In this document: positions 8,193 through 44,369 of the stretch, one piece after another
Layout of the letters: each line of letters opens with the position of its first letter
How positions within the stretch are numbered: the first letter of the stretch is position 1
Virus genome (UHGV): UHGV-0349104
From: a virus
Direction: 5' to 3' (one strand)
Length of the DNA: 44,636 nt
The notes under the pieces: generated by a model
The model's input: the letters and a program-made list of their open reading frames with translations, nothing else
The model's database searches: none
Told to the model about the DNA's origin: nothing
Translations under genes and position numbers: made by a program

Positions 8193-8721
8193 TTGGGAAT
8201 CCATCCGGGCCGAGTACGAAGTGGGGGCGAGCCAGTCCGATCTGTCCAAGCGGTACGGTGTGAGCCGGACGGCCATCCAGAAGCGCATCCGGGCCGAAGG
8301 CTGGGTGCAGGATATTTCCGGCACCGTGAACCGCATGGCGGAGGCCAAGGTTGCGGGCGTGGTTGCAGGCTGCAACACTCAAAAAAAGGCCGAAGCCCTG
8401 AACCGCGCCGCCGAAGCCAAGGCCGCCGTCATCACCCGCCACCAGCGGGAGTGGGATCGGCATCAGGCCCTCATTGATGAGGCGTTGTCCCTGGGCAGCT
8501 TCGAGAAGGCCAAGCTCGCCAAGATCACCGCCGAGACGATCAAGATCAGGCAGGAATGTGAGCGTAAGGTGTGGGGCATCGTGGACAAGGCCGCAGTGGA
8601 TCATACGTCGTCCGACGGCTCCATGTCTCCGCGTCCGGTCGATCTCTCTCGTCTTTCCCCGGATGAGCTGCTCCGGCTGACGCGGGAGGCGTTCAGGGAG
8701 ACGGGGCGGGATGGCGGGTGA
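8176..8721 (+). CDS. terS: terminase small subunit
   Basis: N-terminal HTH (QSDLSKRYGVSRTAIQKRIR), coiled middle; overlaps terminase large subunit start. Confidence 0.55.
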   Translation: MAARFDWESIRAEYEVGASQSDLSKRYGVSRTAIQKRIRAEGWVQDISGTVNRMAEAKVAGVVAGCNTQKKAEALNRAAEAKAAVITRHQREWDRHQALIDEALSLGSFEKAKLAKITAETIKIRQECERKVWGIVDKAAVDHTSSDGSMSPRPVDLSRLSPDELLRLTREAFRETGRDGG

Positions 8722-11700
8722 AGTGCTTGCGGAAATCCGCCGCGCGCTGGCCCGGAGCTGTCTCGCGGCCTTTGTGCGCTACACCATGCCCGGCTACCGC
8801 ATGGGCTGGGTGCACGAGGAAATCTGTTCCGAGCTGGATGCCTTCCTTGCCGACGTCGTAGCCGGGCGTTCCCCGCGCCTCATGCTGACCATGCCGCCCC
8901 GCCACGGGAAAAGCGAGCTGGCCTCCCGCCGCTTCCCGGCCTACGCCTTGGGCCGCTATCCCGATCTATCCGTCATTTCAACGAGCTACGCCGCCGACCT
9001 GTCCTCGCGCATGAACCGCGACGTTCAGCGCGTCATCGACAGTCCGGAATACCGGGAACTCTTCCCGGGAACAGCCCTTTACGGCAAGAATATCCGCACC
9101 GTGGGGAACGGTTCCTACCTCCGCAACTCGGATATATTCGAGGTAGTGGGGCACGCTGGATGCTACCGTTCCGCTGGCGTGGGCGGCGGCATCACGGGCA
9201 TGGGTGCGGAATGCGTTGTCATTGGAACACAAATTGCGACTCCTGACGGAGATCGCGCTATCGAGACCCTACAAGTCGGGGATAACGTGCTATCATACAA
9301 TCATCAAACGGGGGAAATTGAAACTGATATAGTGATAGCGGTAAAGGATCGATATGCAGAAGAAAGCTACCGATTACGCGATGCCCTTGGCAGAGTTCTT
9401 GAAGTTACAGGAAACCATCCGATCTTTTCACGGGGGGAATATACCCCTGCATCATCAATTGCCACGGGTGATCCTATCTTGTGCCTGGTGTGGCCTGGAG
9501 TTTGTGAGGCCGGCTTATGTGGTGGCCAAAAATATCAGGAAGGGGATGAAAGATTTCTACTGCTGCAAGGAACATTCTTGTGCCCATCATGCAGTCAAGA
9601 ACAGCAAGACGTGCCCCGGTTGTGGACGGATCATCAAACACACAGGGAGAACCAAAGGGGCAAAGACCTGCCCGGAATGTGCCGCAAAATTCAAGAAGCC
9701 GAGCCAGGTCCCTGTCGAGCATCAGCCCAGAGAAAAAATTTGCCCTATCTGCAACAAGCTCTTTATGTCTGCCCACAGGGGACGCGGTATTTTTGCCAAG
9801 TATTGCAGCAAGCGGTGCAGCGAAATTGCACACTCTATTCTGATGTCTGGCAAGGGGAATCCCCGATACCGTCACGGCATGACTCCCTTGCGGGAACAGG
9901 TGCACTCTGCGCGGGCATTCCGACAGTTTCGGCCTTTGATTTTAGACAGGGATCAGCATCGTTGTGTTCTATGTGGCAAGGAGGAAACACGGTTGGAGGT
10001 TCATCACATGGATCTTATTCCGATCAACAATGTTGCGACAAACTTGATTACGCTGTGCAGCAAGTGCCACAGGATCTTGCACGGCATGAAAGAAGAACAG
10101 TACAAGCGGGACATATTGCCAACATTGCGCGAATATACGGAACAGCACGCCGTTTTGTTGATATCCAAGTAGCACGTAATCAGAACTTCTTTGCCGGCGG
10201 TGTCCTTGTCCACAACTGCGCTATCATCGACGACCCATTCAAAGATCGGGCGTCCGCCGATTCCCCGACCATCCGCCAGAACGTCTGGGACTGGTACACG
10301 TCCACGTTGTACACGCGCCTCGCGCCCGGTGGAGGGGTGCTCATCATCAACACTCGCTGGCACATGGCTGACCTTTCCGGGCGGCTGCTTGAGGCCGCCG
10401 CACGGGGGGAGGGCGACCACTGGCGCGTGGTAAACTTCCCGGCCATCGCCACGGAGGATGAGCCGCACCGCAAGGCAGGTGAAGCCTTACACCCTGAACG
10501 CTACCCGTTGGAGCAGCTTCTTGCCATCAAGAAAGCCCTCGGCACACGCGACTGGGAGGCCCTGTACCAGCAGCGGCCTACGCCAGACGGCGGCGCCATC
10601 TTCAAATCCGAGTGGCTGCGGTTCTGGCTCCCCAAAGACCTGCCGGAGCAGTTCGACCAGCTCCTTATCTCGTGGGATATGACGTTCAAGGACGGCGACG
10701 ATACCGACTTTGTTGTGGGGCAGGTGTGGGGCCGCAAGGGGGCAGACCGCTACCTCCTCGATCAGGTCCGGCGGCGCATGGGATTTACGGACACGGTCGC
10801 CGCGTTCCGGGAGCTCGCCGCCAAATGGCCCGGCGCAACCCGCAAGCTGGTGGAAGACAAGGCCAACGGCCCGGCGGTCATCGACGCGCTGAAACATGCC
10901 GTGCCCGGTATCATCCCCGTGGAGCCGGACGGCAGCAAGACGGCTCGCGCCCATGCTGTGACTACGTTCTTCGAGGCCGGGAACGTCCTGCTCCCGCACC
11001 CTGAGCATTGCCCGTGGGCGCGGGAGTACGTCGCGGAACTGACACAGTTCCCCGGTGCGCCCCACGACGATCAATGTTTTGCTGCAGGCACTTTAGTTGC
11101 GACTTTGCGAGGGGGTATCCCAATTGAAAAAGTAAAGGAAGGTGATTTTGTTGTGACTCCTCAAGGGTTTAGGCGTGTGTTGTTCGCTGGAAAAACCGGA
11201 GAGTCTGTGTTATTGTATCGACATGGAATTTTTGCAACTGCGAATCATCCGTTCATGAAAACCAGTGGAGAAGTTTGCAAATTTGCAGAAATAGAAAAGT
11301 CTGAACTTGTTCACATGACTATAAGGGAGTTGCTAGTATGGATATTCCGAAAAGAGTTGAATTTAATGGCGTCACCTATGCCCTCATGGCAGGGGGGAAA
11401 TACTATCTTAGTCAGTCAAAAACAAACGCAGGTAGGAAAAATCCGAAGGGGCTTCATGTCGCTATTTGGGAATACTACAGTGGCAAGAAAGTCCCTAAAG
11501 GGTATGAGATTCATCACAAAGATGGTAATACACATAACAACAATTTTGACAACCTTGAGTGTTTATCACGTTGTGAACACCGCAAAACGGTTAAGCAAAA
11601 CAAAGAAAAATGCCGTAAGCACCTTGAAGAAGTACGCCCTCTTGCTACTGAGTGGCACAGGAGCGAAGAAGGCCGTGCATGGCATCGAGAGCAAAGCAGG

Positions 11701-12139
11701 AAGGCATACGCAAAAAGAGAGTATACTGAGCATGTTTGTGAGTACTGCGGCAAGACGTATAAAACGCGCCATACGGGAAAAAACCGCTTCTGTTCCCATA
11801 ATTGTGAAATCAAATGGCGATATCACAATGAATACGAGCTTGCCGAGGGTGTGTGCCAATGGTGCGGCAAACCGTTCACATACAAGACCGGAACCTGCAG
11901 AAAAAACAAAGTACGTAAATTCTGCAGCAAGTCTTGCAGCACAAGCCACTTCAACGCCCAACGCCGTGCCAGTGTATAACCTCACCGTAGAGGGCGAGCA
12001 CCTTTATTTTGCTAATGGGGTGCTCGTCCACAATTGTGACGCCACCACTCAGGCCCTCCGCGACTTCGACGCCAAACGCCCCATGTCTATCAATCCTGCT
12101 ATCCTCACTCAACCACGTATAGGGTATCGCTTCCGGTAA
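8711..12139 (+). CDS. terL: terminase large subunit precursor carrying two inteins
   Basis: N-terminal ATPase (MPPRHGKSE Walker A-like, IIDDPF Walker B region) and C-terminal nuclease region; 1142-aa ORF leaves about 487 aa of extein after removing the two inteins. Confidence 0.8.
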   Translation: MAGEVLAEIRRALARSCLAAFVRYTMPGYRMGWVHEEICSELDAFLADVVAGRSPRLMLTMPPRHGKSELASRRFPAYALGRYPDLSVISTSYAADLSSRMNRDVQRVIDSPEYRELFPGTALYGKNIRTVGNGSYLRNSDIFEVVGHAGCYRSAGVGGGITGMGAECVVIGTQIATPDGDRAIETLQVGDNVLSYNHQTGEIETDIVIAVKDRYAEESYRLRDALGRVLEVTGNHPIFSRGEYTPASSIATGDPILCLVWPGVCEAGLCGGQKYQEGDERFLLLQGTFLCPSCSQEQQDVPRLWTDHQTHRENQRGKDLPGMCRKIQEAEPGPCRASAQRKNLPYLQQALYVCPQGTRYFCQVLQQAVQRNCTLYSDVWQGESPIPSRHDSLAGTGALCAGIPTVSAFDFRQGSASLCSMWQGGNTVGGSSHGSYSDQQCCDKLDYAVQQVPQDLARHERRTVQAGHIANIARIYGTARRFVDIQVARNQNFFAGGVLVHNCAIIDDPFKDRASADSPTIRQNVWDWYTSTLYTRLAPGGGVLIINTRWHMADLSGRLLEAAARGEGDHWRVVNFPAIATEDEPHRKAGEALHPERYPLEQLLAIKKALGTRDWEALYQQRPTPDGGAIFKSEWLRFWLPKDLPEQFDQLLISWDMTFKDGDDTDFVVGQVWGRKGADRYLLDQVRRRMGFTDTVAAFRELAAKWPGATRKLVEDKANGPAVIDALKHAVPGIIPVEPDGSKTARAHAVTTFFEAGNVLLPHPEHCPWAREYVAELTQFPGAPHDDQCFAAGTLVATLRGGIPIEKVKEGDFVVTPQGFRRVLFAGKTGESVLLYRHGIFATANHPFMKTSGEVCKFAEIEKSELVHMTIRELLVWIFRKELNLMASPMPSWQGGNTILVSQKQTQVGKIRRGFMSLFGNTTVARKSLKGMRFITKMVIHITTILTTLSVYHVVNTAKRLSKTKKNAVSTLKKYALLLLSGTGAKKAVHGIESKAGRHTQKESILSMFVSTAARRIKRAIREKTASVPIIVKSNGDITMNTSLPRVCANGAANRSHTRPEPAEKTKYVNSAASLAAQATSTPNAVPVYNLTVEGEHLYFANGVLVHNCDATTQALRDFDAKRPMSINPAILTQPRIGYRFR
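9212..10216 (+). mobile_element. intein 1 in terL
   Basis: N-terminal Cys (CVVIGTQIATPDG), block B VTGNHPIF, C-terminal GGVLVHN followed by Cys+1; inserted between GMGAE and CAIIDDPF. Confidence 0.75.
9354..10172 (+). CDS. free-standing HNH endonuclease with zinc ribbons, alternate frame inside intein 1
   Basis: HNH motif RLEVHHMDLIPINNVATNLITLCSKCH; repeated Cys ribbons; ends 4 nt before intein C-terminal block; true start may lie downstream of 9354. Confidence 0.65.
   Translation: MQKKATDYAMPLAEFLKLQETIRSFHGGNIPLHHQLPRVILSCAWCGLEFVRPAYVVAKNIRKGMKDFYCCKEHSCAHHAVKNSKTCPGCGRIIKHTGRTKGAKTCPECAAKFKKPSQVPVEHQPREKICPICNKLFMSAHRGRGIFAKYCSKRCSEIAHSILMSGKGNPRYRHGMTPLREQVHSARAFRQFRPLILDRDQHRCVLCGKEETRLEVHHMDLIPINNVATNLITLCSKCHRILHGMKEEQYKRDILPTLREYTEQHAVLLISK
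11075..12034 (+). mobile_element. intein 2 in terL
   Basis: Begins CFAAGTLVATL, block B TANHPFM, ends YFANGVLVHN plus Cys+1; AT-rich interior. Confidence 0.75.
11338..11979 (+). CDS. free-standing HNH endonuclease with zinc ribbons, alternate frame inside intein 2
   Basis: N-terminal NGVTYALMAGGKYYLSQ..GYEIHHKDGNTHNNNFDNLE (HNH_3-like), then CEYCG..FCSHNCE and CQWCG..FCSKSCS ribbons; own RBS AAGGGAG. Confidence 0.7.
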   Translation: MDIPKRVEFNGVTYALMAGGKYYLSQSKTNAGRKNPKGLHVAIWEYYSGKKVPKGYEIHHKDGNTHNNNFDNLECLSRCEHRKTVKQNKEKCRKHLEEVRPLATEWHRSEEGRAWHREQSRKAYAKREYTEHVCEYCGKTYKTRHTGKNRFCSHNCEIKWRYHNEYELAEGVCQWCGKPFTYKTGTCRKNKVRKFCSKSCSTSHFNAQRRASV

Positions 12140-18362: not shown

Positions 18363-18863
18363 TTAGTCTTCCTCTTCATCGTCTTCCTCCGTTGCCGCTT
18401 CCAGCTTTATGAACTCGGGAAGAACCGCAATGCTGCCGCATTCGTCATCCATTTCAACAGCCTTGAAGCCGAGCTTACGGGCAAAGGCGATCCGCATGGC
18501 CTGAGCCTCCCAACTTGCGTCATCGTCGTCCATATTGAGGAGGTTTACCCAGTCTTCATCTTGATAACCAATTTTCTCTTCAACCACGGCATACCAGCAG
18601 AGATCAAAATACTTTTCGTCTATACCGCGCTCTGCCATAACTTCACGTAGAGCCGTTCCAGCAGCGCCATCTTCAAGATACGGGAGATCCTCGTTCAAGA
18701 AGATGTCCTTGATGTCTATTTCGCACTGGTAGACGTAATTTCCGTATTCCTTTGCATGTCCGTAAGTACGGGCAAAGAACACCGCGCCGAAGTTATACCC
18801 TAACCCTGTTCCTGAGTTAGAGATAGCCAGATGTTCAATCATGCTTCCGTGGTATAGCTTCAT
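18363..18863 (-). CDS. DUF3990-like protein, possible ADP-ribosyltransferase-like fold
   Basis: N-terminus MKLYHGS (H-G-S motif), Tyr-rich FFARTYGHAKEYGNYVY, acidic tail EEDDEEED; start at ATG 18863 behind RBS AAGGAGAAG. Confidence 0.45.
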   Translation of the reverse strand: MKLYHGSMIEHLAISNSGTGLGYNFGAVFFARTYGHAKEYGNYVYQCEIDIKDIFLNEDLPYLEDGAAGTALREVMAERGIDEKYFDLCWYAVVEEKIGYQDEDWVNLLNMDDDDASWEAQAMRIAFARKLGFKAVEMDDECGSIAVLPEFIKLEAATEEDDEEED

Positions 18864-18876
18864 GGTGGCTTCTCCT

Positions 18877-20007
18877 TTACCCTTTCGTTGAAAATACAAT
18901 AGCACCATTTTTTGAAAAAATAAACAATTTTTCAAAAAAAGTTTTATCGTATTTCAAGGCCGTAGCCCGGATTCGATCCGCAAAGGGGATAATATCTTCC
19001 AATTTTTCGATGTCTTCCTTTGCGTCCTTATTCTCCCCATCAAACAGTCCGACCCTCCACTGTTTTCCGTTGAAATACAGACGGCACAGAGGCTTGAGCC
19101 TGTTGTCGTCAAGAAGGATAGAGCAGTAGCTGATACTGTCCCGCATGGCTACGCGCCCCGGATCAACGGTGCCCACCAGAAGCGATTTGACAAGGTAATA
19201 CGCCTCTTTTTCTTCCTCGGTGGTGACTATACGCGAATCCTGCTCTTTTCCTTGTGGGGCATCTTCGGATTCTATCTCTACAATTTCCGGTTTCTGCTGC
19301 GTCATGGCATTTTTCAATCGGTCGTTGATGCGGTCGTTGATGAACTGGTCAAGCGCAGCGGTAAGGATTGGAGTGAAGCGATCCAGAACGTTTTGCGTGA
19401 TACGCCCATCATACGTCTGTCCGATGAAAAAGCGTGCGAAATCTTCGTGGGGCGTTTCCATCTGTTCCCCCATGATGCGCTTGAACTCACGGTTGTACTT
19501 AAGTTCGTTTGCCGCGCTCATGCAGGCGTCTCGATTAAATTTGCCTTTTGCCAGCTTGCGCAGTTCCGGAAGCAGCATTTCATCCATATCGTCAAGGACG
19601 AACTCCATATAGGGTTTGCTGTCCATTTTGTTTGCTGCTTCAAGGTCGGAATAGAACCGGTAACGGTTGCCGTCCGTCAGAATGGCAATGGGGGCTTCCG
19701 TCCCGTGGAAGTAAAGCTGGAGCTGGTTGCAGTGCTTCATGTCAAGAGACGTGCCCAAAGCCTTGCATTCCAGAAGAAGGATAGGCTTGCCGTCAACAAG
19801 AATCGCATAGTCCACGCGGGCGTCCTTATATTCGCCGATGGGGGCTGAAAATTCGGGCACGACTTCCGCAGGGTTGAAAACGTCGTATCCCAGGGCCGCG
19901 ATGAAAGGCATCACCAAGGCGTTTTTCGTGGCCTCTTCGGTCTTGAGGCTATCTCCCAGATTCTTTACCTTTTTCGACAATTCAGCAATTCTTTCCGAAA
20001 AATCCAT
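18877..20007 (-). CDS. HsdR_N-type PD-(D/E)xK nuclease-like protein (stand-alone type I R N-terminal domain)
   Basis: EEATKNALVMPFIAALGYD...ARVDYAILVDGKPILLLECKALG matches type I HsdR N-terminal nuclease-fold pattern; about 250 aa of unassigned C-terminal sequence; GC about 47%. Confidence 0.5.
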   Translation of the reverse strand: MDFSERIAELSKKVKNLGDSLKTEEATKNALVMPFIAALGYDVFNPAEVVPEFSAPIGEYKDARVDYAILVDGKPILLLECKALGTSLDMKHCNQLQLYFHGTEAPIAILTDGNRYRFYSDLEAANKMDSKPYMEFVLDDMDEMLLPELRKLAKGKFNRDACMSAANELKYNREFKRIMGEQMETPHEDFARFFIGQTYDGRITQNVLDRFTPILTAALDQFINDRINDRLKNAMTQQKPEIVEIESEDAPQGKEQDSRIVTTEEEKEAYYLVKSLLVGTVDPGRVAMRDSISYCSILLDDNRLKPLCRLYFNGKQWRVGLFDGENKDAKEDIEKLEDIIPFADRIRATALKYDKTFFEKLFIFSKNGAIVFSTKG

Positions 20008-20042
20008 GGTCCTCTCTCCCTGTTCGGATTCAAGTTAATATA

Positions 20043-20642
20043 TTAAGATTTATATATTTTCTTATAGGTTTTCCAAGAATACAGTCCGGAAAGGATAGTG
20101 AGGATTCCCCATAACAAGGCCCCATTCGTATTGGGCGGCGTTTGGAGGGCACAACTCAGCCACAATACGGCTAGCACTACTGTTATCAGCACTCCAATGA
20201 TAAGGGCAATTTTTTTAGGGGGCGTCTGAGAACGTTCATGATGTATAAGCGGGTTTGGTTCTCCACGCTCTTGGGCCAATTGGTCATCAAAAAGGTGTGC
20301 GCGGATAACCTCCATCATGGGGCTATTCACCTTTGCCAATGCCTTATTTCCATTTTTGAACTCAATAATGACGGTAGACTCAGTCGTCTTGCCTCCAGCT
20401 ACCGCACCCGCAACCGCTCCGATGCCTCCAAGCAAGACGCCGCCGACAAGTGCGCCTCCCAAAGTTCCGCCGAGCTTTTTGACCGATTCTTCATTGGCTA
20501 CTTCGCAAGAGGCAATACTGGAAAGAAAAAGTTCCTTTGCTCCAAACATTTTTGAAGAGCAACGCAACTTGTTTTTATTCTTAATGTAAATATATTCTTC
20601 TTTCCCGTAGTCCCCTGCCAGAAACTTGATGTAGGTAGCCAT
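20043..20642 (-). CDS. glycine-zipper membrane protein
   Basis: LGGTLGGALVGGVLLGGIGAVAGAVAGG glycine zipper plus two C-terminal TM helices IALIIGVLITVVLAVLWL and LLWGILTILSGLYSW; GC about 42%; TATAAT and RBS AAGGGGGA upstream. Confidence 0.5.
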   Translation of the reverse strand: MATYIKFLAGDYGKEEYIYIKNKNKLRCSSKMFGAKELFLSSIASCEVANEESVKKLGGTLGGALVGGVLLGGIGAVAGAVAGGKTTESTVIIEFKNGNKALAKVNSPMMEVIRAHLFDDQLAQERGEPNPLIHHERSQTPPKKIALIIGVLITVVLAVLWLSCALQTPPNTNGALLWGILTILSGLYSWKTYKKIYKS

Positions 20643-33849: not shown

Positions 33850-34507
33850 CTGGCGCGAAACGCTCCTTTCGCAATACGATAACTCGGAGCGGCTGCTGGC
33901 GCTCATCGAATCGATGAATGCCGCCATTGAGCCCACAGCGGATATTGCGGCGTTCTATGAGTCCGTCTTTGACCCCGAAACGGCGTTCGGATGGGGGCTT
34001 GATGTGTGGGGGCGCATCGTAGCCATCCCGCGTACGCTTGAAGTAGAGGCGACGGATATCAAGCCGTTCGGTTTCTCCGGTTCAAACCTCAGCAACTTTG
34101 GGCACGGCCCTTTTGTATATGAGAGCAAATCGAACACGTTCATACTTCAAGATAACGCCTACCATCTTTTGATCTGGATGAAAGCAGCTTCGAACATCAC
34201 CGACGGCAGCCTCCTAGATTTGAACAAGATCGTTCATTGGCTTTTCTCGGATCGCGGTCATATTGCCGTCGTGCATGTCGGAACAATGAAAATACGCTAC
34301 GTCATCGGCTTCAAACTCCAGCCATACGAGCGTGCGCTTCTCCTGCGCGATGATGTTCCCCCAAAGCCTGCGGGCGTCGGCTATGACGTCTATCAAGTCA
34401 TCCCGAAACATACCTTCGGTTTCGCCGGATCCGGCGGTCAGAATTTCAACAACGGCGTTTTTCAGCCGTATGGAGGCCCTGTAGATGCCTATTCCCTCAA
34501 CGCCTAG
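33842..34507 (+). CDS. tail protein I-like
   Basis: GTG start behind RBS GAGGT; position between J and fibre gene. Confidence 0.4.
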   Translation: MDNWRETLLSQYDNSERLLALIESMNAAIEPTADIAAFYESVFDPETAFGWGLDVWGRIVAIPRTLEVEATDIKPFGFSGSNLSNFGHGPFVYESKSNTFILQDNAYHLLIWMKAASNITDGSLLDLNKIVHWLFSDRGHIAVVHVGTMKIRYVIGFKLQPYERALLLRDDVPPKPAGVGYDVYQVIPKHTFGFAGSGGQNFNNGVFQPYGGPVDAYSLNA

Positions 34508-35606
34508 CATCATGCCCAACGTCTTGGGATATGCAGCGGATACCGTGCAGATCCCTGAAACGACCCCCACGGGTCAAGGTATTCCCTCTTTCCGAGATCT
34601 CTTTCCGTTCATCACGCAGGTCGACCCGGACGCGGGCGGCGTCATGGTTGAACGTTCATGGATGAACGCGCTTTTCAACCTGCTTGGTCAACACGCCTTT
34701 TTCCAACAATCCGGATGCGTCTACCCGTGGCAAGATACGCTGAACTATATCACGGGCTCTCATGTCAAAGGTAGTGATGATGTCGAGTACATCGCGTTGC
34801 AACCTTCCGGGCCAGATGTGTCCGGCGTGGGAGCAAAAGACCCTGCACAGCAAGCAAACCGCGCGTACTGGGTTTCGCTTGCATCTTTTGTCTCCGGCGA
34901 CTTTGTTCCAGATTCGCGGCGGGTCATCGCCGGAACGGGGCTCACTGGCGGCGGGCCGCTCTCAGCTGACGTGACGCTTGCTGCGAAGCTGACAAATAGC
35001 GTGAACCTTACTGATTCGACGACGGCAGCGTCCGCCACTGCGGTGAAGACAGCTTACGACTTGGCGAAAACCAAACAACCGAACCTTGGTTTTACACCGA
35101 TACAGCAAGGCGGCGGAACGGGGCAAGGTACCAATAAAGTCTACATAGGATGGGCTACTGACGCGAGTGGGCTCAAGGCGCAGGCTGACAGCACTAACCT
35201 TGGAAACATCGTAACAACAGCAGGGGGAACAATAAAGGCTCCACAAGCTGCGTTGGCTGACCGCGCGCAGGTAGCCAACACTTCTGAAACTCTCTTTGTT
35301 ACGGGCTGGGGAAACACAAAGTGGGGAAGCACTCCGTATGGGCAATCCCCCTTATACGTGTGGTGTTTGCCGAGCGGCGGATATGACATGATGCCTTGTA
35401 GTCCCAGCGTTCTTTCTGCTGGTGCGGCAAACTGGTGCACATACACTCCTAACGTTCGCGTTGGCATGGCTGGTTCAGTCCTCCCAGCCGGAGGAACTTG
35501 GAGGTGCATTACTTCAAGAAACGGCGAGGGTGAGATATTTGATCTCGCTGGAGGCTCTGCTGTAAATACTAGAGGTGGTGTATTTATGGCAATTAGGGTT
35601 GCTTAG
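34485..35606 (+). CDS. tail fibre protein
   Basis: TTAASATAVKTAYDLAKTK motif typical of fibre proteins; Gly/Thr-rich; lower-GC C-terminal third. Confidence 0.65.
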   Translation: MPIPSTPSIMPNVLGYAADTVQIPETTPTGQGIPSFRDLFPFITQVDPDAGGVMVERSWMNALFNLLGQHAFFQQSGCVYPWQDTLNYITGSHVKGSDDVEYIALQPSGPDVSGVGAKDPAQQANRAYWVSLASFVSGDFVPDSRRVIAGTGLTGGGPLSADVTLAAKLTNSVNLTDSTTAASATAVKTAYDLAKTKQPNLGFTPIQQGGGTGQGTNKVYIGWATDASGLKAQADSTNLGNIVTTAGGTIKAPQAALADRAQVANTSETLFVTGWGNTKWGSTPYGQSPLYVWCLPSGGYDMMPCSPSVLSAGAANWCTYTPNVRVGMAGSVLPAGGTWRCITSRNGEGEIFDLAGGSAVNTRGGVFMAIRVA

Positions 35607-35612
35607 AAGGAT

Positions 35613-36035
35613 ATGAACATGAATTACGGACAAATCATCCACCGGACCGCTGACGATTCATACGTCATCACAAAGAACGATATGCCTTACCACGTTTACC
35701 CTTATGCCGCCGAGTTCGCTGAACTTTGGGATGAGGTCTTTGCCTACGCCGAGGCGCACCCCGAATGCGTGACAGAAGAGCAACCTTACGCTGCACCCAC
35801 GCCGACGCAGGAAGAACTCGCGGCGAGCGTACGCGCCGAACGCGATAGGCGCATTACTGCAACAGATTATCTCGTCATGCCGGACTATCCGCTTGATACG
35901 GATAAGCTTGAAGAGATCAAGGCGTACCGCCAAGCCTTGCGCGATCTTCCTCAGCAACCGGGCTTCCCTTGGGGTGGGCCTGACGATCCGGAGTGTCCAT
36001 GGCCTGTGTCGAACCGTGATTTGCAAAAATCTTAG
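35613..36035 (+). CDS. tail fibre assembly protein (chaperone)
   Basis: RRITATDYLVMPDYPLDTDKLEEIKAYRQALRDLPQQPGFPW is the classic Tfa signature. Confidence 0.7.
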   Translation: MNMNYGQIIHRTADDSYVITKNDMPYHVYPYAAEFAELWDEVFAYAEAHPECVTEEQPYAAPTPTQEELAASVRAERDRRITATDYLVMPDYPLDTDKLEEIKAYRQALRDLPQQPGFPWGGPDDPECPWPVSNRDLQKS

Positions 36036-36071
36036 GTATGGCTAGTTTCTTTAGAAACAAGGAGGAAGTCT

Positions 36072-36302
36072 ATGCCACTACCTATGCCAGAGGAAGAGGA
36101 AAAGTTTCGCTGTCCACACGGTGAACGTAATCAGGCGTTGATGCTCTGCTCGCTTGATTGTGATTTGTCCGGTGCTCATCCCGATAGAAAGGCGAAAGCG
36201 GATGGTCGATTCATCATCACGCCGTGGTGGTGCATGAACAAGTGCAGATGGCTGCCTGAGCACAGAGATGAGATCCGATTCGTGGCGAAAAAGTCGGATT
36301 GA
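36072..36302 (+). CDS. small Cys-rich hypothetical protein
   Basis: 76 aa with 6 Cys; RBS AAGGAGG; followed by bidirectional terminator. Confidence 0.4.
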   Translation: MPLPMPEEEEKFRCPHGERNQALMLCSLDCDLSGAHPDRKAKADGRFIITPWWCMNKCRWLPEHRDEIRFVAKKSD

Positions 36303-36310
36303 AGACACAA

Positions 36311-36350
36311 AAAAATCCCCATCCCGGTTCACGCCGGGATGGGGATTTTC
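36311..36350. terminator. bidirectional rho-independent terminator
   Basis: Perfect 13-bp stem ATCCCCATCCCGG/CCGGGATGGGGAT flanked by AAAAA and TTTT, between convergent genes. Confidence 0.75.
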
Positions 36351-36373
36351 GCATTCACACAGCATACCGATGC

Positions 36374-36607
36374 TCACTTTTTTAAGGCGTTGGGAAGACG
36401 CTTTTTGCCGTCTGCACCAAGCTGTTTGGTGCAGCCAGCAAAAAGCGCCTTCCCTGATTCTGGGGATAGCGTATCGCGGGAAGATTTTCTAGTCCCTTGG
36501 TTGAGTTCGAGCAGTTCGAGAAACCGTTGGTAGAGACGTTGGTCTTCAATCTCTAACTCCCGACGCCGCTGTACGATTGAGCGAATTTCCGAGATTGTCG
36601 TTTCCAT
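36374..36607 (-). CDS. hypothetical small protein
   Basis: 77 aa coiled-coil-like; convergent with the plus-strand tail genes. Confidence 0.3.
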   Translation of the reverse strand: METTISEIRSIVQRRRELEIEDQRLYQRFLELLELNQGTRKSSRDTLSPESGKALFAGCTKQLGADGKKRLPNALKK

Positions 36608-36624
36608 CCTTTCTCCTTTCTTTT

Positions 36625-37116
36625 CTACGCGGCCCGCTCATACACCCGCGTCCCGATTTCGGCTATCTGCGGGTCGACCTTTTCGAGCGCATTGCACAGC
36701 GTGGTCAGCGTCTTGAGCAGGTTGTGCCAATGAAGGCCCCGGAAGTAGACGGGGCAGGTGTTCCGGGCGTCTTCGAGGAAGGTGAGCCCGGCCCACATTC
36801 CGGCACCCCATTGCGTCCAGCGGGAAGCGTCGCCGGAAGCCGCCTGAATGTCCCCGACGTGTTCCGCGAGGATATGGAACCTCCTGTCGAGATCTCGCTT
36901 TGCGCCAGCAGACAGCCTGCGCTGGACATCATCGCTACACCGTTCGATCCAGCGGTCGACCTTCTTGACTTGTCTGCCAAGGTCGCCAAGCTGAGGAAGC
37001 GTTTCGGGCTTGAGAAGGGATAGCGCCACGGTAATCATGGACAGGGCCAGAACACAGCGGGTGTGCTGGATGGCCTCGTGCGGGTACGGGATTACGGGGT
37101 TGATGGGTCTTCGCAT
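36625..37116 (-). CDS. hypothetical protein
   Basis: 163 aa; no recognisable motif. Confidence 0.3.
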   Translation of the reverse strand: MRRPINPVIPYPHEAIQHTRCVLALSMITVALSLLKPETLPQLGDLGRQVKKVDRWIERCSDDVQRRLSAGAKRDLDRRFHILAEHVGDIQAASGDASRWTQWGAGMWAGLTFLEDARNTCPVYFRGLHWHNLLKTLTTLCNALEKVDPQIAEIGTRVYERAA

Positions 37117-37205
37117 GTTCTCCTCCAGAAAAAGGAAAAGCCCCTTTCGGGGCTACTTCGGTTCGTGCTTGTTTGCGGGGACGCATACGGCAACTACCGT
37201 ATGAT

Positions 37206-37251
37206 TTATCCAACGCGCCGTAAAACCTCCCCCTTCAGGGGGAGGATATAA
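37206..37251 (-). repeat. 45-nt GC-hairpin repeat element, copy 2 (minus orientation)
   Basis: TTATCCAACGCGCCGTAAAACCTCCCCCTTCAGGGGGAGGATATAA; terminator-like on minus strand just downstream of the Cys-rich operon. Confidence 0.7.
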
Positions 37252-37293
37252 TAGGGCGGCATGATCGCCGCCTTCCTAAGCCGTTCCAGTTCG

Positions 37294-37575
37294 TCAAGAT
37301 ACTCCTGAGCTGTCATTGGTTCGTTCCCCCGGTATATTTGTTTCAAAGTCGTTGCATATCCCTCGTGCAGCCACACAAAAATTGTGCAGGTCGCAAAAGT
37401 AGGTTGTTTGGTGTGTGTAGCTGGAGTAGCGCCCCACGTGCTTGCAAAACCTGCACTCATTCTTTTGACGCGGCCTGTAGCCACATGCATTCTGCCTATC
37501 CCGCACAAGTTCCCGTTCGAGCTTGTGGGCTTCTGTGAGGGAGTTGACCACGATTACGATTTGGGGTTCAGGCAT
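37294..37575 (-). CDS. small Cys-rich protein (third of overlapping trio)
   Basis: Start ATG 37575 behind strong RBS GGAGGAGAGAGG; 7 Cys including CRFC. Confidence 0.45.
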   Translation of the reverse strand: MPEPQIVIVVNSLTEAHKLERELVRDRQNACGYRPRQKNECRFCKHVGRYSSYTHQTTYFCDLHNFCVAARGICNDFETNIPGERTNDSSGVS

Positions 37576-37775
37576 CCTCTCTCCTCCTGCGCGCTGTTCA
37601 ACACTTCTTCCCAAGCTTGAGGCGTTACCCGTCCGCATGTCTTGCATCCTCTCACCCGACAATACGGGTCGGGACATCCCCCGATGGGTACTGTCACATA
37701 AGCCCTGCACATATACGCCCGCGCAATGGCCTCTTTCGAGCACTGTATGATGGATTCAAGCGTGATTTCGTTCAT
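37554..37775 (-). CDS. small Cys-rich protein (second of trio)
   Basis: MNEITLES... with 8 Cys (CPDPYC, CKTC); RBS GAGGAG; overlaps neighbours by about 20 nt each. Confidence 0.45.
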   Translation of the reverse strand: MNEITLESIIQCSKEAIARAYMCRAYVTVPIGGCPDPYCRVRGCKTCGRVTPQAWEEVLNSAQEERGCLNPKS

Positions 37776-38130
37776 TGTCCATCTCCTCTTCAACGTACAA
37801 GCGGGCGTGCTTCAACCCGCAGCGTGTAGCCTGAGTGCCAAATCGGTTATAGTTACCATCACAATTGTCAGGGCAGTCACCAGCATAACCGTAAGGGCAA
37901 TTATAGTCGTATTGGAGACAGGGTTGCGCTCCGTTTGCAGCGACCACCGCCACTCTCGCCTCGAACTCGGCTGCGTCGCGGTAGTCTGGACAAAGAGACA
38001 GCCCGTACAAGCTTCTGGAACGGCAAGAAGAGCACAGTTCATAATAGCCAACCCGATTCGGACAAGTATCACAATGTTGGGTGCGTTTCTTCCGCTCCTC
38101 CAGCCACTTCCTTTCCTGTTCCGTCAGCAT
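37756..38130 (-). CDS. small Cys-rich protein (first of trio)
   Basis: 124 aa with 12 Cys (CDTC, CSSC, CPDNCDGN). Confidence 0.45.
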   Translation of the reverse strand: MLTEQERKWLEERKKRTQHCDTCPNRVGYYELCSSCRSRSLYGLSLCPDYRDAAEFEARVAVVAANGAQPCLQYDYNCPYGYAGDCPDNCDGNYNRFGTQATRCGLKHARLYVEEEMDNERNHA

Positions 38131-38294
38131 ATTTCACCCCGCGCGTTGTTCAGGCAGTCGCGCCCCTGCCTTAAATCATGTGGTCCGACGCCTTAACGGG
38201 CTTCATTGGCATCACCCCCTTCCGGGGCCAATTGCCCATATCATCCACACGAAGAAGGCGACCCACACCCACGTGAGCCGCCTTTCCCATTTCG

Positions 38295-38555
38295 TCATTC
38301 GATGATTTCCCAGTCTTCCGCGAGCATGTCCGTTTGGCTCGCCAGCCAAGGAACGAAACGATAGTCTGCTGTTTTCATCCCGATCCACGGCAACAGGCAA
38401 GGAGGATCGGCGTTGACTTCTTCGCCCCAGAAATCGGAACAGGTGCGAACATCTTCAGAATGAACGAGACGCAACCACATACCTTTGCCGTTCCATCCTG
38501 CCCGCGCAACACGTTTGTCGACTTTTAAAGCTTCAAGAGCTTGTCCGAAGTTCAT
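38295..38555 (-). CDS. DUF2829 family protein (Tad2-like candidate anti-defence)
   Basis: MNFGQALEALKVDKRVARAGWNGKGMWLRL...MKTADYRFVPWLASQTDMLAEDWEII matches my memory of the DUF2829 pattern (memory-based, not searched). Confidence 0.45.
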   Translation of the reverse strand: MNFGQALEALKVDKRVARAGWNGKGMWLRLVHSEDVRTCSDFWGEEVNADPPCLLPWIGMKTADYRFVPWLASQTDMLAEDWEIIE

Positions 38556-38769
38556 GTTTTTCCCTTTCCGCGTGATTCGTATGCGCGGCCCACGGTTTGG
38601 GGTATGAAAAGCCCCGCCGGGGGAGGGCGGGGCGTGGGGTGCTTCTGCAATTTTGACAAGAGCTAATGAAAGCTCTATCCTAAAGTGTCACGTTCAGGTA
38701 GGAGAAGCGAGGCACTATGCCACGTTCTTCTGCTCAAGGCCCCGAACCATAAAGGACTCGGGGCCTTTT

Positions 38770-39021
38770 TCATACTTTCTCAGCAATTCTCAGCTTGCTT
38801 GCCGGGACCGTCCATTTTCCCTCGTAGCCGTACACGTTGACGTACATAGCCTTGCGGCCTTTCCCGAAATCACGGGGATACGGGGCTGTGGAGGCCGTAA
38901 CGGTGATGGTTTGACGTTCGCCGCCTACCTTGGCTCGGTAGAGAAAACGGCGTCCCGGAATTATCGATGCCAAATCAGGACATTTTAGTCTGATGTCTGG
39001 GAGGGCGTCGGTGTCGGGCAT
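38770..39021 (-). CDS. hypothetical small protein
   Basis: ORF in accessory region; start uncertain. Confidence 0.25.
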   Translation of the reverse strand: MPDTDALPDIRLKCPDLASIIPGRRFLYRAKVGGERQTITVTASTAPYPRDFGKGRKAMYVNVYGYEGKWTVPASKLRIAEKV

Positions 39022-39251
39022 GGCGTTACTCCGTTGAACTCTTTCAATGTTCCGTCGCTCCATATGACTCTGTGGGTACTGTTCTCAGAGTCTACAATGA
39101 CGAACACGATGTCCTTCTTCTGCTTCTCTGAAAGTATCCCGCTCATCTCACCAGACCTATACGCAAGATGCATACAGAAAAAGAACATGATGAGCGCGTA
39201 AACCATCCCCATAAATTTTGAGTTCATGAATTTTGCGAAGGAGCTATTCAT
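38985..39251 (-). CDS. small membrane protein
   Basis: N-terminal TM MGMVYALIMFFFCMHLAY; Pro/Thr-rich C-terminus; AT-rich. Confidence 0.35.
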   Translation of the reverse strand: MNSSFAKFMNSKFMGMVYALIMFFFCMHLAYRSGEMSGILSEKQKKDIVFVIVDSENSTHRVIWSDGTLKEFNGVTPCPTPTPSQTSD

Positions 39252-39332
39252 GGTTGCCCTTATTCTTAAGTTTCTTCATCAGCTTATACAGGAGGGGCGC
39301 TTTACCGTCTTCTCTGTCGCGTTCATCTTCTT

Positions 39333-39377
39333 GACATCCTCCCCCTTAAGGGAGAGGTTTTACGGCGCGTTGGATAA
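39333..39377 (+). repeat. 45-nt GC-hairpin repeat element, copy 3
   Basis: GACATCCTCCCCCTTAAGGGAGAGGTTTTACGGCGCGTTGGATAA; two substitutions against copy 1. Confidence 0.7.
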
Positions 39378-39471
39378 AGCGAGTATCTTTACCAACATGC
39401 TGAAATTACTCGGTTATTTTCAATGACAAATGTTCTCGGAAGCCGTGTGCTGACCATTCAAAGGAGGGCAA

Positions 39472-40449
39472 GTGATGATAAAAGATGTTTCCATTGAACT
39501 TATTCAGAAGTGTGTGAACCATTGTATTCATTGCTCTTCCTGCTCAACAGAGGAATCAGTTGCGATGCTGGATATCGACACGATGCGCCGGGTCATTCGG
39601 ACACTCCAAGGGCTGAAGGTCGAGAGGGTCTGCCTTTCCGGCGGCGAGCCGTTTCTACATCCCAATCTGTTGGAAATCGTCAGACAGTTAGTCGGCTGCG
39701 GCATGACGGTGGACGTATACTCTAGCGGGATCCTGAAAGAGGAAGGGGCACCAGAACCGTTGTCCCTTGAGCGGCTGTCCCTTATGAAGGACGCCGGATT
39801 GAGGTCACTCCTGTTTAATGTGCAGTCGGTGGACGACCCCACCTATGATCGTATCACACAGAGCAAAGGGCATTTCCCCTTGCTGCAGATGAGTATTGCC
39901 AACGCCATCGCCTGCGGAATTCGAACGGAAATTCACTTTGTCCCCATGCGGCAGAATGTACATGAAGCAGAGGCAGTGATCCGATTTGCTGAGCGGACAG
40001 GGATAGAACAGGTCAATTTTTTGAAGCTGGTTCCTCACGGGCGCGCCCAGGAAAATGCGCAGAGTCTGATGCTCAGCGATGAAGAGCTGGCGGCACTGTG
40101 TTCCCGCCTGGAGGATTTGCAGACTCAGGGAAAATCCATCCGGTTGGGATTGCCTCTGTCCATTCAGGGAAATACTCCGCCATGCCACGCGGTGAGAAAA
40201 AAATTATACATTAAATTCGACGGTTCGGTTTTTGGATGCGAGGCGTTTAAATATATTCAATTCCAGGATGAAAACGGAAGCCCCGTTTTACCCAGCAACA
40301 TCTTGGAAAAGGACATCGAGGAAATCTATTACAACTCTGAGTACTTGCAGCGGAGCCTCAAACTTGTGGAACATTATGAAGCCTGCAAGATTGGCTGCGA
40401 AAATTGTCCGGTGCAGAAGTATCTGAAAGATGGGGAGTTGTCAAAATGA
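39472..40449 (+). CDS. radical SAM enzyme with SPASM/twitch-type C-terminal Cys cluster
   Basis: CVNHCIHC (CxxxCxxC) at residues 15-22; GGEPFLHPNL SAM-binding-like; C-terminal CHAVRKKLYIKFDGSVFGC (Cx12Gx4C) and CKIGCENC; GC about 48%; RBS AAGGAGGG. Confidence 0.7.
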   Translation: MMIKDVSIELIQKCVNHCIHCSSCSTEESVAMLDIDTMRRVIRTLQGLKVERVCLSGGEPFLHPNLLEIVRQLVGCGMTVDVYSSGILKEEGAPEPLSLERLSLMKDAGLRSLLFNVQSVDDPTYDRITQSKGHFPLLQMSIANAIACGIRTEIHFVPMRQNVHEAEAVIRFAERTGIEQVNFLKLVPHGRAQENAQSLMLSDEELAALCSRLEDLQTQGKSIRLGLPLSIQGNTPPCHAVRKKLYIKFDGSVFGCEAFKYIQFQDENGSPVLPSNILEKDIEEIYYNSEYLQRSLKLVEHYEACKIGCENCPVQKYLKDGELSK

Positions 40450-40976
40450 GCTACGAAATCAATGACCGAACGTTAATCACTGAGCTGCGCGACAAGATCC
40501 CTAGTGCTGTGAAGGTTAGATACGACGAACTTGAGACAGAGCTGAAAGAAAAAAAGCTGAAGTTACCGGAGAATTTCACCCATCCTCTTGATAAAGAAAT
40601 CATCGGGGAAGGCGGGAAATTGGCAAAGCTTTTATCGGAACAGGAGAATGCGATTTCCTATTCCAAAGCGGGCGAATTAGCCCACCTGTGGCGCACACTA
40701 CTCGATAAATCAATTGTATGCCTCCGATATTTAGACACTCGGGAGCCATTTCAGGAGAATCCGAATAAGGTTATTGTGGCCTATGGGATAGACAAATTAG
40801 AAGAATACCACCGGCGATATACAGAATTTGAAAGTCTCATGTACGGCTCAAACGCCCATTATCGGGATCATGTGTTTCACGCGATCCGGGTTTGGATGTT
40901 GGGCGTGTACTGCATGCTGACGGATTTCAATAACAGCGTCGGAAATCAGACGGGTCATGAGGTACATCGTATCTAA
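40446..40976 (+). CDS. radical-SAM partner protein, possibly 3'-truncated (HD- or HEPN-like)
   Basis: ATGA translational coupling; C-terminus HYRDHVFHAIRVWMLG looks like the start of an HD motif or an Rx4H motif; stop overlaps a convergent minus-strand ORF. Confidence 0.4.
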   Translation: MSYEINDRTLITELRDKIPSAVKVRYDELETELKEKKLKLPENFTHPLDKEIIGEGGKLAKLLSEQENAISYSKAGELAHLWRTLLDKSIVCLRYLDTREPFQENPNKVIVAYGIDKLEEYHRRYTEFESLMYGSNAHYRDHVFHAIRVWMLGVYCMLTDFNNSVGNQTGHEVHRI

Positions 40977-41148
40977 ACCATGAAGGACTGGTATTGAAAA
41001 CCTCGTTGTCGACCATCCCGGTTAAGACTGCGTGAATCGTTTTAGAAGAAATTCCGGTTTCTCCGTTGGCTAACCACATCTGTTCCCGCCATTGCTGTGG
41101 AAGCGAAAGTATCTCAGCCGTGTAATCCCCGTACAAATCAACACTCAT
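40927..41148 (-). CDS. hypothetical small protein
   Basis: 73 aa; RBS GAGGTGAG; high GC; last gene of leftward recombination operon. Confidence 0.35.
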   Translation of the reverse strand: MSVDLYGDYTAEILSLPQQWREQMWLANGETGISSKTIHAVLTGMVDNEVFNTSPSWFRYDVPHDPSDFRRCY

Positions 41149-41161
41149 GATTCATCTCACC

Positions 41162-41407
41162 TCATATGCTTGTGAGCCTATACTTTTCATTGAGTACAAA
41201 GGCTTCCCCACGATGACCGGGAAGCCGTTCCGCCGTGTTTGGGAATTTCAAACGAAGAATCACCTTGCGCCCTGTCTGTTTTGAAAAACGTTCGGCTGCG
41301 GGAAGACTATCCCACGCCCTGACGGGCGGAAGAATGCCCCCCGAATCCTTGTAGCGTTTAAGCTTCTTTACCGTGGTCACATGCCATACGATCATAGTCT
41401 TTCCCAA
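41162..41407 (-). CDS. hypothetical small protein
   Basis: 81 aa between Gp157 and last operon gene. Confidence 0.35.
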   Translation of the reverse strand: MGKTMIVWHVTTVKKLKRYKDSGGILPPVRAWDSLPAAERFSKQTGRKVILRLKFPNTAERLPGHRGEAFVLNEKYRLTSI

Positions 41408-41441
41408 AAGAAAGGCCCGGTGGTGAGCCGGGCCGGGGTGG

Positions 41442-41939
41442 TTATCGTACTTGTAAGCTGTAGGTTTTCACCAGAGCACATCCGGGGATGTGCAAACCTC
41501 CCTTGAGGGCTTCTTTGATCGTGGCCTTGTCCGGTTCCATCGTTGTTTTCGTTCTGCGGTACAACTCTGGAAGCTCTTCCGTTTGCGCCGTTACTGCTAT
41601 CGCCTCAGATTCCCGGACGCTGATTGTGTAGGCGTTGCCTGATACTTTCTTGAGGCCGTTTTCCCTGAGAACGATAGTGTAGTGTTCCTTGAGCCATGCA
41701 AGGCGTGATTCCGCTGCCCTCGCCTTGGCTGCAAGGCGTCTAGCCTCTTCCTTGCAAGCTTCGGCAAGTGCAGACTGAATTTTCAAGAACTGCCCGAACC
41801 CATCCACCTTGTCGGCTTCGAGTTTAGCGAGTTCATCCATGTAGGCGTCCATCGCCTCGCGCTGTTCCGGGGTAAGTTCTTCATCGGGAATAGAAAGCAT
41901 CCCGGCGAGTTCTTGCTGAATTTCGTTGAAAGTCGGCAT
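41442..41939 (-). CDS. siphovirus Gp157 family protein
   Basis: Coiled-coil protein with typical Gp157 pattern and position next to SSB/ERF. Confidence 0.5.
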   Translation of the reverse strand: MPTFNEIQQELAGMLSIPDEELTPEQREAMDAYMDELAKLEADKVDGFGQFLKIQSALAEACKEEARRLAAKARAAESRLAWLKEHYTIVLRENGLKKVSGNAYTISVRESEAIAVTAQTEELPELYRRTKTTMEPDKATIKEALKGGLHIPGCALVKTYSLQVR

Positions 41940-41949
41940 GTTTCACCTA

Positions 41950-42345
41950 CTAGAAGGGCATAGTGTCCATGCCGGAAGATTCAGAGGGGAAGGATGAACC
42001 GGATTTTCCTCCATCCTTTTTGTCGAGGAATTGGATGCGCTGCGCTTTGATTTCCGTAGTGTAGCGCTTCTGTCCCTGCTGATCCTGCCATTCCCGCGTG
42101 GACAACGAGCCCTCCACGAATATAAGGCTCCCCTTGCTCAGGTACTGGCCGCAATGTTCGGCGGCCTTCTGGAACACAACGACGCTGTGCCATTCGGCCT
42201 TTTGAACCCGGTTCCCCTCCCTATCCGTGTAGCTTTCGTCGGTAGCGACATTGAGGCGGCAGATCGCCGCGCCGTTCTGGGAATATTTGAGTTCGGGTTC
42301 GCGCCCGAGGCGTCCGATGATTTCAACACGATTGAGGCTGGCCAT
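41950..42345 (-). CDS. ssb: single-stranded DNA-binding protein
   Basis: NRVEIIGRLGREPELKY OB-fold start, FVEGSL..REWQDQQGQKRYTTEI, acidic tail MDTMPF. Confidence 0.85.
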   Translation of the reverse strand: MASLNRVEIIGRLGREPELKYSQNGAAICRLNVATDESYTDREGNRVQKAEWHSVVVFQKAAEHCGQYLSKGSLIFVEGSLSTREWQDQQGQKRYTTEIKAQRIQFLDKKDGGKSGSSFPSESSGMDTMPF

Positions 42346-43006
42346 TGTGTCCTCCGTTGATGGCGTTCAGAAATTCGGAAACATCGGCCTTCGTCAGTTC
42401 ACGGGAACTTGAAAGAGGCCGCCCAAAGAATTGTGAAAGTTCGGAAAGATACGCCTCGCGGCTGTCACCATGCCGTTTTGTCAGATAGGCCATGAGCGCC
42501 TTTGACTGCTCCTGCGTCATCGGGCTGGCGTTTTCCGCCTTCGCCTTTGCCCGTTGCTGTGCGGCCCCGTTTCTGGGGGCGAGATGGTCCGTTTCGGCGT
42601 CCGGGTCGGGCATCTCCTCCGTAGGGATGCAGAACGTCTGGAACATGGCGTACTTCATGGCAATGGACTGCGCCTTGGGCAATGCCTTGTCCCCGCTGTC
42701 CATCGCTTCGCCCACGGTCACACAATGAACGCTGGAACCGTCCTCGGCGTAGAACGTGAAGCGCACCTTCGCGGTCACATAGGCCATGACCGTGCCCTTG
42801 GCGTTCGCCCGTTCCTCGCGTGTCGTTTCCAGCACCTCCGGCACACAGAACACGCCATGTTGGGACATGACCGGATGCAGGGCGTTGTACACATCGTCGA
42901 TCCCCCGGAACTTGAAGGAGGCGAACCCGCTGGTCTGCCTGTCCTTGCCGATGGAGCCGCAATCCCGCATGACCGCGATGATCGCGCTGTAAATCTTCGC
43001 TTCCAT
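42323..43006 (-). CDS. ERF family single-strand annealing protein
   Basis: FKFRGIDDVYNALHPVMSQHGVF and AMKYAMFQTF match ERF pattern; adjacent to ssb. Confidence 0.6.
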   Translation of the reverse strand: MEAKIYSAIIAVMRDCGSIGKDRQTSGFASFKFRGIDDVYNALHPVMSQHGVFCVPEVLETTREERANAKGTVMAYVTAKVRFTFYAEDGSSVHCVTVGEAMDSGDKALPKAQSIAMKYAMFQTFCIPTEEMPDPDAETDHLAPRNGAAQQRAKAKAENASPMTQEQSKALMAYLTKRHGDSREAYLSELSQFFGRPLSSSRELTKADVSEFLNAINGGHNGQPQSC

Positions 43007-43135
43007 ATTTTATCCTTTCACCGCCCATCGGCGGGAACTAAAAAAGCCCCTTGTCGGGGCCGTAGTATTCTGGTTCATCGGGAATCGTGCGGTCTACGCC
43101 TTCCCTCTTCGCGTCGTACATATCTGCTTCTGGTT

Positions 43136-44341: not shown

Positions 44342-44369
44342 ATAATACCAAATGGAAACACAAAGTAAA
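44342..44369 (-). promoter_or_regulatory. sigma70-like promoter on minus strand
   Basis: -35 TTTACT, 17-nt spacer, extended -10 TGGTATTAT. Confidence 0.4.

Follow-up and report, generated by a model that had tools for sequence, protein, structure and literature searches.

A candidate Tad2-type signal sponge encoded by a temperate-type phage of Bilophila wadsworthia

A small gene in the accessory region of a gut phage most likely encodes a stand-alone Tad2 signal sponge of a temperate-type phage of Bilophila wadsworthia, with 3'cADPR as the most likely ligand; we put the probability of this reading at roughly 0.72. The gene occupies positions 38295..38555 on the minus strand of the 44,636-nucleotide stretch of viral DNA analysed here (the window, UHGV-0349104) and consists of 86 codons and a TGA stop, giving the 86-residue protein MNFGQALEALKVDKRVARAGWNGKGMWLRLVHSEDVRTCSDFWGEEVNADPPCLLPWIGMKTADYRFVPWLASQTDMLAEDWEIIE. 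Its ATG is the first start codon past an in-frame stop upstream, and the gene call is backed by the reading frame itself, a Pfam match, matches to solved Tad2 proteins, a structural model and the pocket residues. A preliminary description of this DNA had placed an 86-residue ORF at exactly these coordinates, leaving the strand unstated, and had equated it with DUF2829 and the Tad2 family, an assignment on which sequence, predicted fold and pocket residues now agree. The sequence pattern it quoted is present in the segments FGQALEALK, GWNG, MKT and PW.ASQTD.LAEDWEI, but the stretch given as K.GK actually reads K-V-D-K. A second frame on the opposite strand (38334..38528) has no support.

Membership of the protein in the Tad2 family is as good as certain. 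The DUF2829 profile search that the preliminary description had proposed returns a significant match to Pfam PF11195 (94 bits against a cutoff of 25, E 8.3e-27) that spans the entire profile (1-73 of 73), and Pfam's current name for this family, formerly DUF2829, is 'Thoeris anti-defense 2-like domain'. A phmmer search of PDB sequences matches every solved Tad2 with E values from 1e-16 to 3e-13, namely SPO1 Tad2/Gp34.65 (8SME, 9.5e-17), ModTad2 (8V3E/9EIB, 4.6e-16), HgmTad2, which is AcrIIA7 (8KBI, 2e-14), SptTad2 (8WJD, 2.7e-14) and pdAcrIIA7 (9KZR, 3.3e-13). Among 5.8 billion proteins searched there are 7959 homologs at E<1e-5, and PF11195 is found in all 120 among the matches listed. The C-terminal parts of PHROG 872 and PHROG 1048, both of unknown function, also match the protein. 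No match was obtained in NCBIfam or in PADLOC, whose models are described as defence rather than anti-defence systems. Family, fold, mechanism and Pfam name are thus already established and databases already label the protein DUF2829; the new part is modest, a further Tad2 candidate about 50% identical to characterized ones and coming from common phages of a gut pathobiont.

What the protein does is graded more cautiously. It is very probable that it serves as a sponge for a TIR-derived ADPR signal, and probable that 3'cADPR, and with it type I Thoeris, is specifically the target. We keep these grades apart from that for family membership because the Tad2 family is functionally plastic and pocket residues predict ligands imperfectly, as seen in the E. 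coli UM149 homolog, which is active on type I Thoeris despite carrying SIGD in place of SQTD. 'Candidate' is therefore the right word for the sponge role, since family membership leaves the ligand unfixed and the function is predicted from sequence and model.

The predicted fold is that of Tad2. An AlphaFold2 monomer model built with 61 homologs (pLDDT 88, pTM 0.76) contains helices at residues 3-11, 40-43 and 74-78 and strands at 15-18, 27-31, 57-61, 67-69 and 82-85, and the resulting order α1-β1-β2-α2-β3-β4-α3-β5 equals the topology published for SPO1 Tad2. The model thus shows an N-terminal helix, an antiparallel sheet and short helices in the β2-β3 and β4-β5 loops, with the β2-β3 insertion predicted at a pLDDT of only 64-78. 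When the model was compared with the PDB by Foldseek, all 24 matches at E<1e-3 were Tad2-family chains (query-normalised TM 0.68-0.79), and the next match after them followed at E 1.2. The protein is a stand-alone Tad2/DUF2829 domain that has a short β2-β3 insertion and no N-terminal head domain. Residues F3, G4, A6, K11, W27 and L28 of helix α1 and strand β2, the elements that form the interfaces of SPO1 Tad2, are well conserved in the alignment. Neither Tad1 nor Acb2 was returned by the sequence (phmmer) and fold (Foldseek) searches of the PDB. Both follow the strategy of Tad2, in which a small phage protein assembles into homo-oligomers and sequesters immune nucleotides without breaking them down; Tad1 has no relationship to Tad2 in either sequence or structure, and Acb2 forms a sponge family of its own.

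Since some relatives are 126-130 residues long, we considered whether the gene is a truncated form of these and rejected the idea, as the stand-alone SPO1 Tad2 and ModTad2 are active. In two relatives (P0002 and P0003) the N-terminal extensions come from start codons called too far upstream, so that the frame runs across the intergenic region. Three others from different gut contigs (P0004, P0006 and P0008), whose cores are 84-89% identical to the protein, carry a genuine 43-residue N-terminal extension, MTTLKELVEKLEWYGFTDKHGHHLENCVDFLNLKASTETVSSIGS, so that head-less and head-bearing versions coexist in the clade. Helix α1 differs in these three, and their extension recalls the 'head domain' forms of AcrIIA7.

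In SPO1 Tad2, gcADPR is contacted by W25, N26, I63, T65, D67, H71, W73, S76, T78 and D79 (Yirmiya et al.), and in HgmTad2 by W21, N22, G23, M76, A78, V84, W87, L88, S90, T92 and D93, where the W21A/N22A and S90A/T92A/D93A mutants lose binding (Li et al.). Transferred through HMMER alignments, these contacts fall on W21, N22, G23, M60, T62, D64, V68, W70, L71, S73, (Q74), T75 and D76 of the protein. Each mapped residue is identical to that of SPO1 Tad2 or HgmTad2; where the two disagree, T62 is SPO1-like while M60 and V68 are Hgm-like. In the 61-homolog alignment each pocket column is either invariant or conserved to at least 95%, and natural variants within the 90% identity cluster seldom alter these positions. 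A defective gcADPR site is predicted for only about 1% of Tad2s (Li et al.); judged from the alignments, the pocket of this protein is conserved.

Among the closest known sponges is the founding member, SPO1 Tad2 (Gp34.65; 8SME/8SMF/8SMG/8WJE). It is likewise a stand-alone protein of about 86-89 residues with an equal order of secondary structure elements, it shares the short β2-β3 insertion and the acidity (net charge -5), its Foldseek TM to the model is 0.74-0.79, and 8 of its 10 published gcADPR contacts (W, N, T, D, W, S, T and D) are identical. The other two, I63 and H71, are replaced by Met and Val, as in HgmTad2. SPO1 is, however, a virulent myovirus of Bacillus, whereas the phage described here is of temperate type and has a Gram-negative host of the Desulfovibrionaceae. 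HgmTad2/AcrIIA7 (8KBI-8KBM, 8WJC) and SptTad2 (8WJD) have the core fold and the gcADPR pocket in common with the protein, the motif WLASQTDMLA-DW is identical, and Met and Val occupy the adenine-contact positions; HgmTad2/AcrIIA7 is basic, whereas the protein is acidic.

Experiments on homologs favour type I Thoeris as the target, as 4 of 5 diverse Tad2 homologs inhibited this system (Yirmiya et al.). We aligned the sequences of the tested homologs (Supplementary Table 12 of Yirmiya et al.) to the protein and found identities of 55% for the Tad2 of Ruminococcus callidus, 51% for that of Nitrosospira sp. Nsp1, 48% each for those of Maridesulfovibrio bastinii and SPO1, and 39% for the E. coli UM149 homolog, all of them type I inhibitors; the identity to ModTad2, a protein without activity on type I, is 42%. 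The three closest tested relatives, the prophage Tad2s of R. callidus, Nitrosospira and M. bastinii, have the same or nearly the same string of pocket residues. Their β2-β3 insertion sequences differ from that of the protein and none is from Bilophila. The M. bastinii Tad2 contains a 15-residue stretch, VPWLASQTDMLAEDW, that is identical in the protein, while its loop is shorter and rearranged in comparison. M. bastinii and Bilophila are both Desulfovibrionaceae.

It is possible that the protein is a Tad2 sponge that uses the same pocket for another main ligand, either His-ADPR (type II Thoeris) or N7-cADPR (type IV), or for several ligands as Tad2_71 does, although we regard this as unlikely. 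Such ligand diversity is known experimentally in the family: ModTad2, which forms one clade with CcaTad2 and TmoTad2, binds His-ADPR and also cUMP/cCMP and does not inhibit type I Thoeris, Tad2_71 blocks types I, II and IV, and some Tad2s block Pycsar, CBASS or type IV Thoeris. ModTad2 (8V3E, 9EIB), a sponge for His-ADPR and cUMP, is also alike in length class and fold, and the phmmer similarity of the protein to it (E 4.6e-16) nearly equals that to SPO1 Tad2 (9.5e-17). However, the protein is 48-55% identical to four type-I-active homologs as opposed to 42% to ModTad2, and at 13 of 13 pocket positions its residue is found in at least one homolog proven to inhibit type I Thoeris. ModTad2 differs at five of these positions (M60/L, V68/A, L71/T, Q74/V and T75/S), so that none of the five residues of the ModTad2-type pocket variant (L, A, T, V and S at 60, 68, 71, 74 and 75) is present. 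A more unusual arrangement, which we consider rather improbable, would be a Bilophila-phage Tad2 that is tuned to other or multiple signals (His-ADPR, N7-cADPR or an uncharacterized TIR product of Desulfovibrionaceae), or one that forms a two-gene module with the 28-residue peptide encoded next to it.

A dual sponge, in which a further pocket located at the dimer interface would take up the cyclic di- or mononucleotides that act as CBASS/Pycsar signals, seems very unlikely. Several Tad2s, HgmTad2, SptTad2 and ModTad2 among them, do have second pockets. In HgmTad2 and SptTad2 the cyclic-dinucleotide pocket is built from a 35-41 residue insertion between β2 and β5 (Li et al.), and this insertion is missing here, the spacing from GWNGK to xKTAD being 40 residues in the protein compared with 56 in HgmTad2 and 39 in both SPO1 Tad2 and ModTad2. 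SPO1 Tad2 binds no cyclic nucleotides. The cyclic-dinucleotide contacts of HgmTad2 (R31, P32, D34, L36, K46, S47, F70, T71 and N85) are missing at 8 of 9 positions, with only the equivalent of D34 kept and the F70/T71 segment and N85 deleted. The protein therefore lacks the insertion and all but one of the contacts of an HgmTad2-type dual sponge.

An anti-CRISPR of the AcrIIA7 type, in which a head-less DUF2829 tetramer binds tracrRNA/sgRNA in a positive groove and blocks assembly of the Cas9 RNP, is very improbable. Binding of tracrRNA and inhibition of SpyCas9 in vitro have been reported for AcrIIA7 forms without a head, the protein is itself head-less, the annotation 'anti-CRISPR protein' occurs among GenBank phage homologs, and 2 of 3 lysines required for RNA binding (pdAcrIIA7 K58, K66 and K71) are present as K11 and K24. 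These two do not discriminate, since hardly any family member lacks them, while Ala19 stands in the place of K66, and the activity is disputed, none having been seen for HgmTad2 in vitro or in vivo (Li et al.). The acidity that the protein shares with SPO1 Tad2 (net charge -5, pI 4.7, against a pI of about 8.9 for the known part of the Hgm/AcrIIA7 core) likewise argues against AcrIIA7-like RNA binding.

If the protein is a Tad2 sponge directed at type I Thoeris, then by analogy with SPO1 Tad2 four copies would assemble into a homotetramer with two pockets at the non-dimeric protomer interfaces. Each pocket would enclose one TIR-made alarm molecule derived from ADP-ribose, most likely 1''-3' gcADPR (3'cADPR), the type I Thoeris signal. 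Inside the pocket, Trp21 and Trp70 would hold the ligand between them, with Asn22/Gly23 and Ser73/Thr75/Asp76 making further contacts. With the signal sequestered, the ThsA effector would stay off, and the infected cell would consequently not abort the infection. Since the gene belongs to a leftward early operon, the sponge could build up ahead of the signal.

The window is a phage genome encoding a DnaB helicase, a large terminase, a portal protein, a DUF2213 protein, a major capsid protein, a DUF3383 sheath-like protein, a tape measure protein and a tail-fibre assembly chaperone. The region with the tad2-like gene lies between the chaperone gene (35613..36035) and an early gene for a Gam-like/Gp157 protein (41442..41939), in a minus-strand early operon whose last part holds the Gam-like/Gp157 gene, small ORFs, the tad2-like gene and Cys-rich ORFs. 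In six contigs encoding the identical protein (L001-L006) the gene resides between a recombination module and an integrase gene; the phages are temperate and mosaic, and in each the gene belongs to the early-left operon. The recombination module consists of RecT/DUF3799 genes in five of the six loci and of an AAA_24 protein gene in L003, usually with an HU-like gene as well; it is on the same strand as the tad2-like gene and the integrase gene, except in L003, where the integrase gene has the opposite orientation. The tad2-like gene has variable small genes around it, among them those for a Lar anti-restriction protein (L002 and L005), a PAPS reductase (L006) and a methyltransferase (L003), and the surroundings are those of a typical early accessory/anti-defence stretch. 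The gene is thus phage-encoded and sits where early expression would be expected; its transcription is probably early.

The preliminary description had also located the gene in an accessory region beside a Cys-rich trio, and this holds: three overlapping Cys-rich ORFs (124, 79 and about 93-149 residues) lie on the minus strand at 37294..38130, directly downstream of the tad2-like gene. Searches of Pfam, PHROGs, PADLOC and NCBIfam gave no match for them. In L003 the block 37245-38643 as a whole is 99.9% identical, and gene calling there kept only the second and third of these ORFs.

Comparison of the six related contigs with the window by blastn delimits a conserved cassette of 410 bp (38236..38645, minus strand) that contains a hairpin, the ribosome-binding site, the tad2-like gene and the start of a small overlapping ORF. 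It is 98-99.9% identical in all six, while its flanks are 88-93% identical or unrelated. The cassette begins a few bases upstream of the hairpin, which forms its 5' edge, and just upstream of the hairpin the seven sequences split into three unrelated contexts. Given this conserved block, the divergent flanks and the three upstream contexts, the hairpin and the tad2-like gene behave as a mobile cassette. The seven copies of the cassette differ by three synonymous and no non-synonymous changes, a count that we dropped as evidence since the loci were retrieved by exact identity of the protein.

A Shine-Dalgarno-like purine run, GGAAAGGGA, can be read 5 nt upstream of the ATG (38561..38569, minus strand) and is kept in the six related loci with one G/A change. 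The hairpin (38611..38633, minus strand), 55 nt upstream of the ATG, is G+C-rich and terminator-like, with eight G-C pairs, a 7-nt loop and a T-run in the following TTTTCAT, and it is identical in all six related loci. A scan for terminators and promoters found such sites to be no commoner than in shuffled sequence, and the hairpin is notable only through its conservation and because it marks the cassette boundary. It presumably works as a terminator. Since no recognisable sigma-70 promoter lies between this terminator-like hairpin and the ATG, expression of the gene would need read-through, presumably from an early promoter.

At its 3' end the gene is overlapped by a 28-residue ORF for a hydrophobic, Trp-rich peptide, MTKWERRLTWVWVAFFVWMIWAIGPGRG (38212..38298, minus strand), whose ATG overlaps the stop codon of the tad2-like gene (ATGA). 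This ORF is open in the window and in the six related loci, and its C-terminus occurs as two different hydrophobic alleles, …WMIWAIGPGRG and …WVVWMVCRGAAA. It may encode a translationally coupled membrane micro-protein and can be counted only tentatively as part of the tad2 unit.

Bilophila wadsworthia is a sulfite-reducing human gut pathobiont. We identify it as the host because the genes that border the prophage in L001, for Tex and carbonic anhydrase, encode products identical to B. wadsworthia proteins, and because the 90% identity cluster of the protein includes WP_418719755.1 ('DUF2829 domain-containing protein [Bilophila wadsworthia]'). The same cluster includes DAT64538.1 ('MAG TPA: Protein of unknown function (DUF2829) [Caudoviricetes sp.]'), and the G+C content of the window, about 55-62% over most of its length, agrees with a B. 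wadsworthia host. The exact 86-residue protein occurs in 682 indexed blocks of an assembly collection and on hundreds of contigs from gut metagenomes. A protein search of genome contigs gave a best match of only 64% identity and no match from Bilophila. Among 50,697 GenBank phage records, 293 have homologs, the best being that of Pseudomonas phage phiAH14a (60.5% identity), and Bilophila is absent from the homolog records listed and from their named hosts. Megablast of positions 30000-44636 against GenBank phages returned no match, and since these last 14.6 kb have no related record, the phage has no near relative among the deposited genomes. Literature searches gave no usable match for Bilophila together with Thoeris, defence systems or prophages and no paper linking Bilophila with Thoeris, and peptide strings of the protein were not found in full texts.

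If it works as predicted, the protein would supply very common temperate phages of B. wadsworthia with a ready-made inhibitor of Thoeris. Immunity of the TIR/Thoeris signalling type would then be a relevant barrier in Desulfovibrionaceae, and the protein would add a data point to the map from Tad2 sequence to ligand. The occurrence of an identical hairpin-tad2 cassette in different phage backbones is an illustration of anti-defence genes moving as small modules. Current understanding is left unchanged; the annotation is sound, and the protein could reasonably be included in a screen of sponge specificity.

Other features of the window concern the phage itself. The tyrosine integrase gene that in relatives follows ORFs of 163 and 70 residues is cleanly absent at the junction 36434..36436 (compare L002:13634-14692 and L004:13248-14306), and tblastn over the whole window with the integrases, RecT and HU of the relatives gave no homolog. 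The phage variant in the window may be non-integrating or may use a different integration system. The DNA from about 39022 to 43038 has no blastn match to any of the six related loci, which at the equivalent place carry another module (RecT/DUF3799/HU, or AAA_24 in L003). Within this region an insert of lower G+C content (46-49%) at about 39250..41400 is encoded on the opposite strand, chiefly by 39472..40449 (plus strand) and 40404..40976 (plus strand), and specifies a radical SAM/SPASM enzyme and a 190-residue ORF product without a family. The enzyme is generic, with NCBIfam matches far below the cutoffs and a weak pVip-like similarity in PADLOC (E 3e-12), and the insert may represent a moron or defence gene carried by the phage. 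A low-G+C island (46-51%) at 18363..20642 on the opposite strand (minus) separates the capsid module from the tail module and includes a gene for a 376-residue protein with a nuclease domain resembling the HSDR_N domain of type I restriction enzymes; this has the appearance of a moron or defence gene that entered the structural region. Finally, the large terminase subunit (8711..12139, plus strand, 1142 residues) contains a Hint/intein-splicing domain at about residues 168-502, inside its Terminase_6N ATPase domain.
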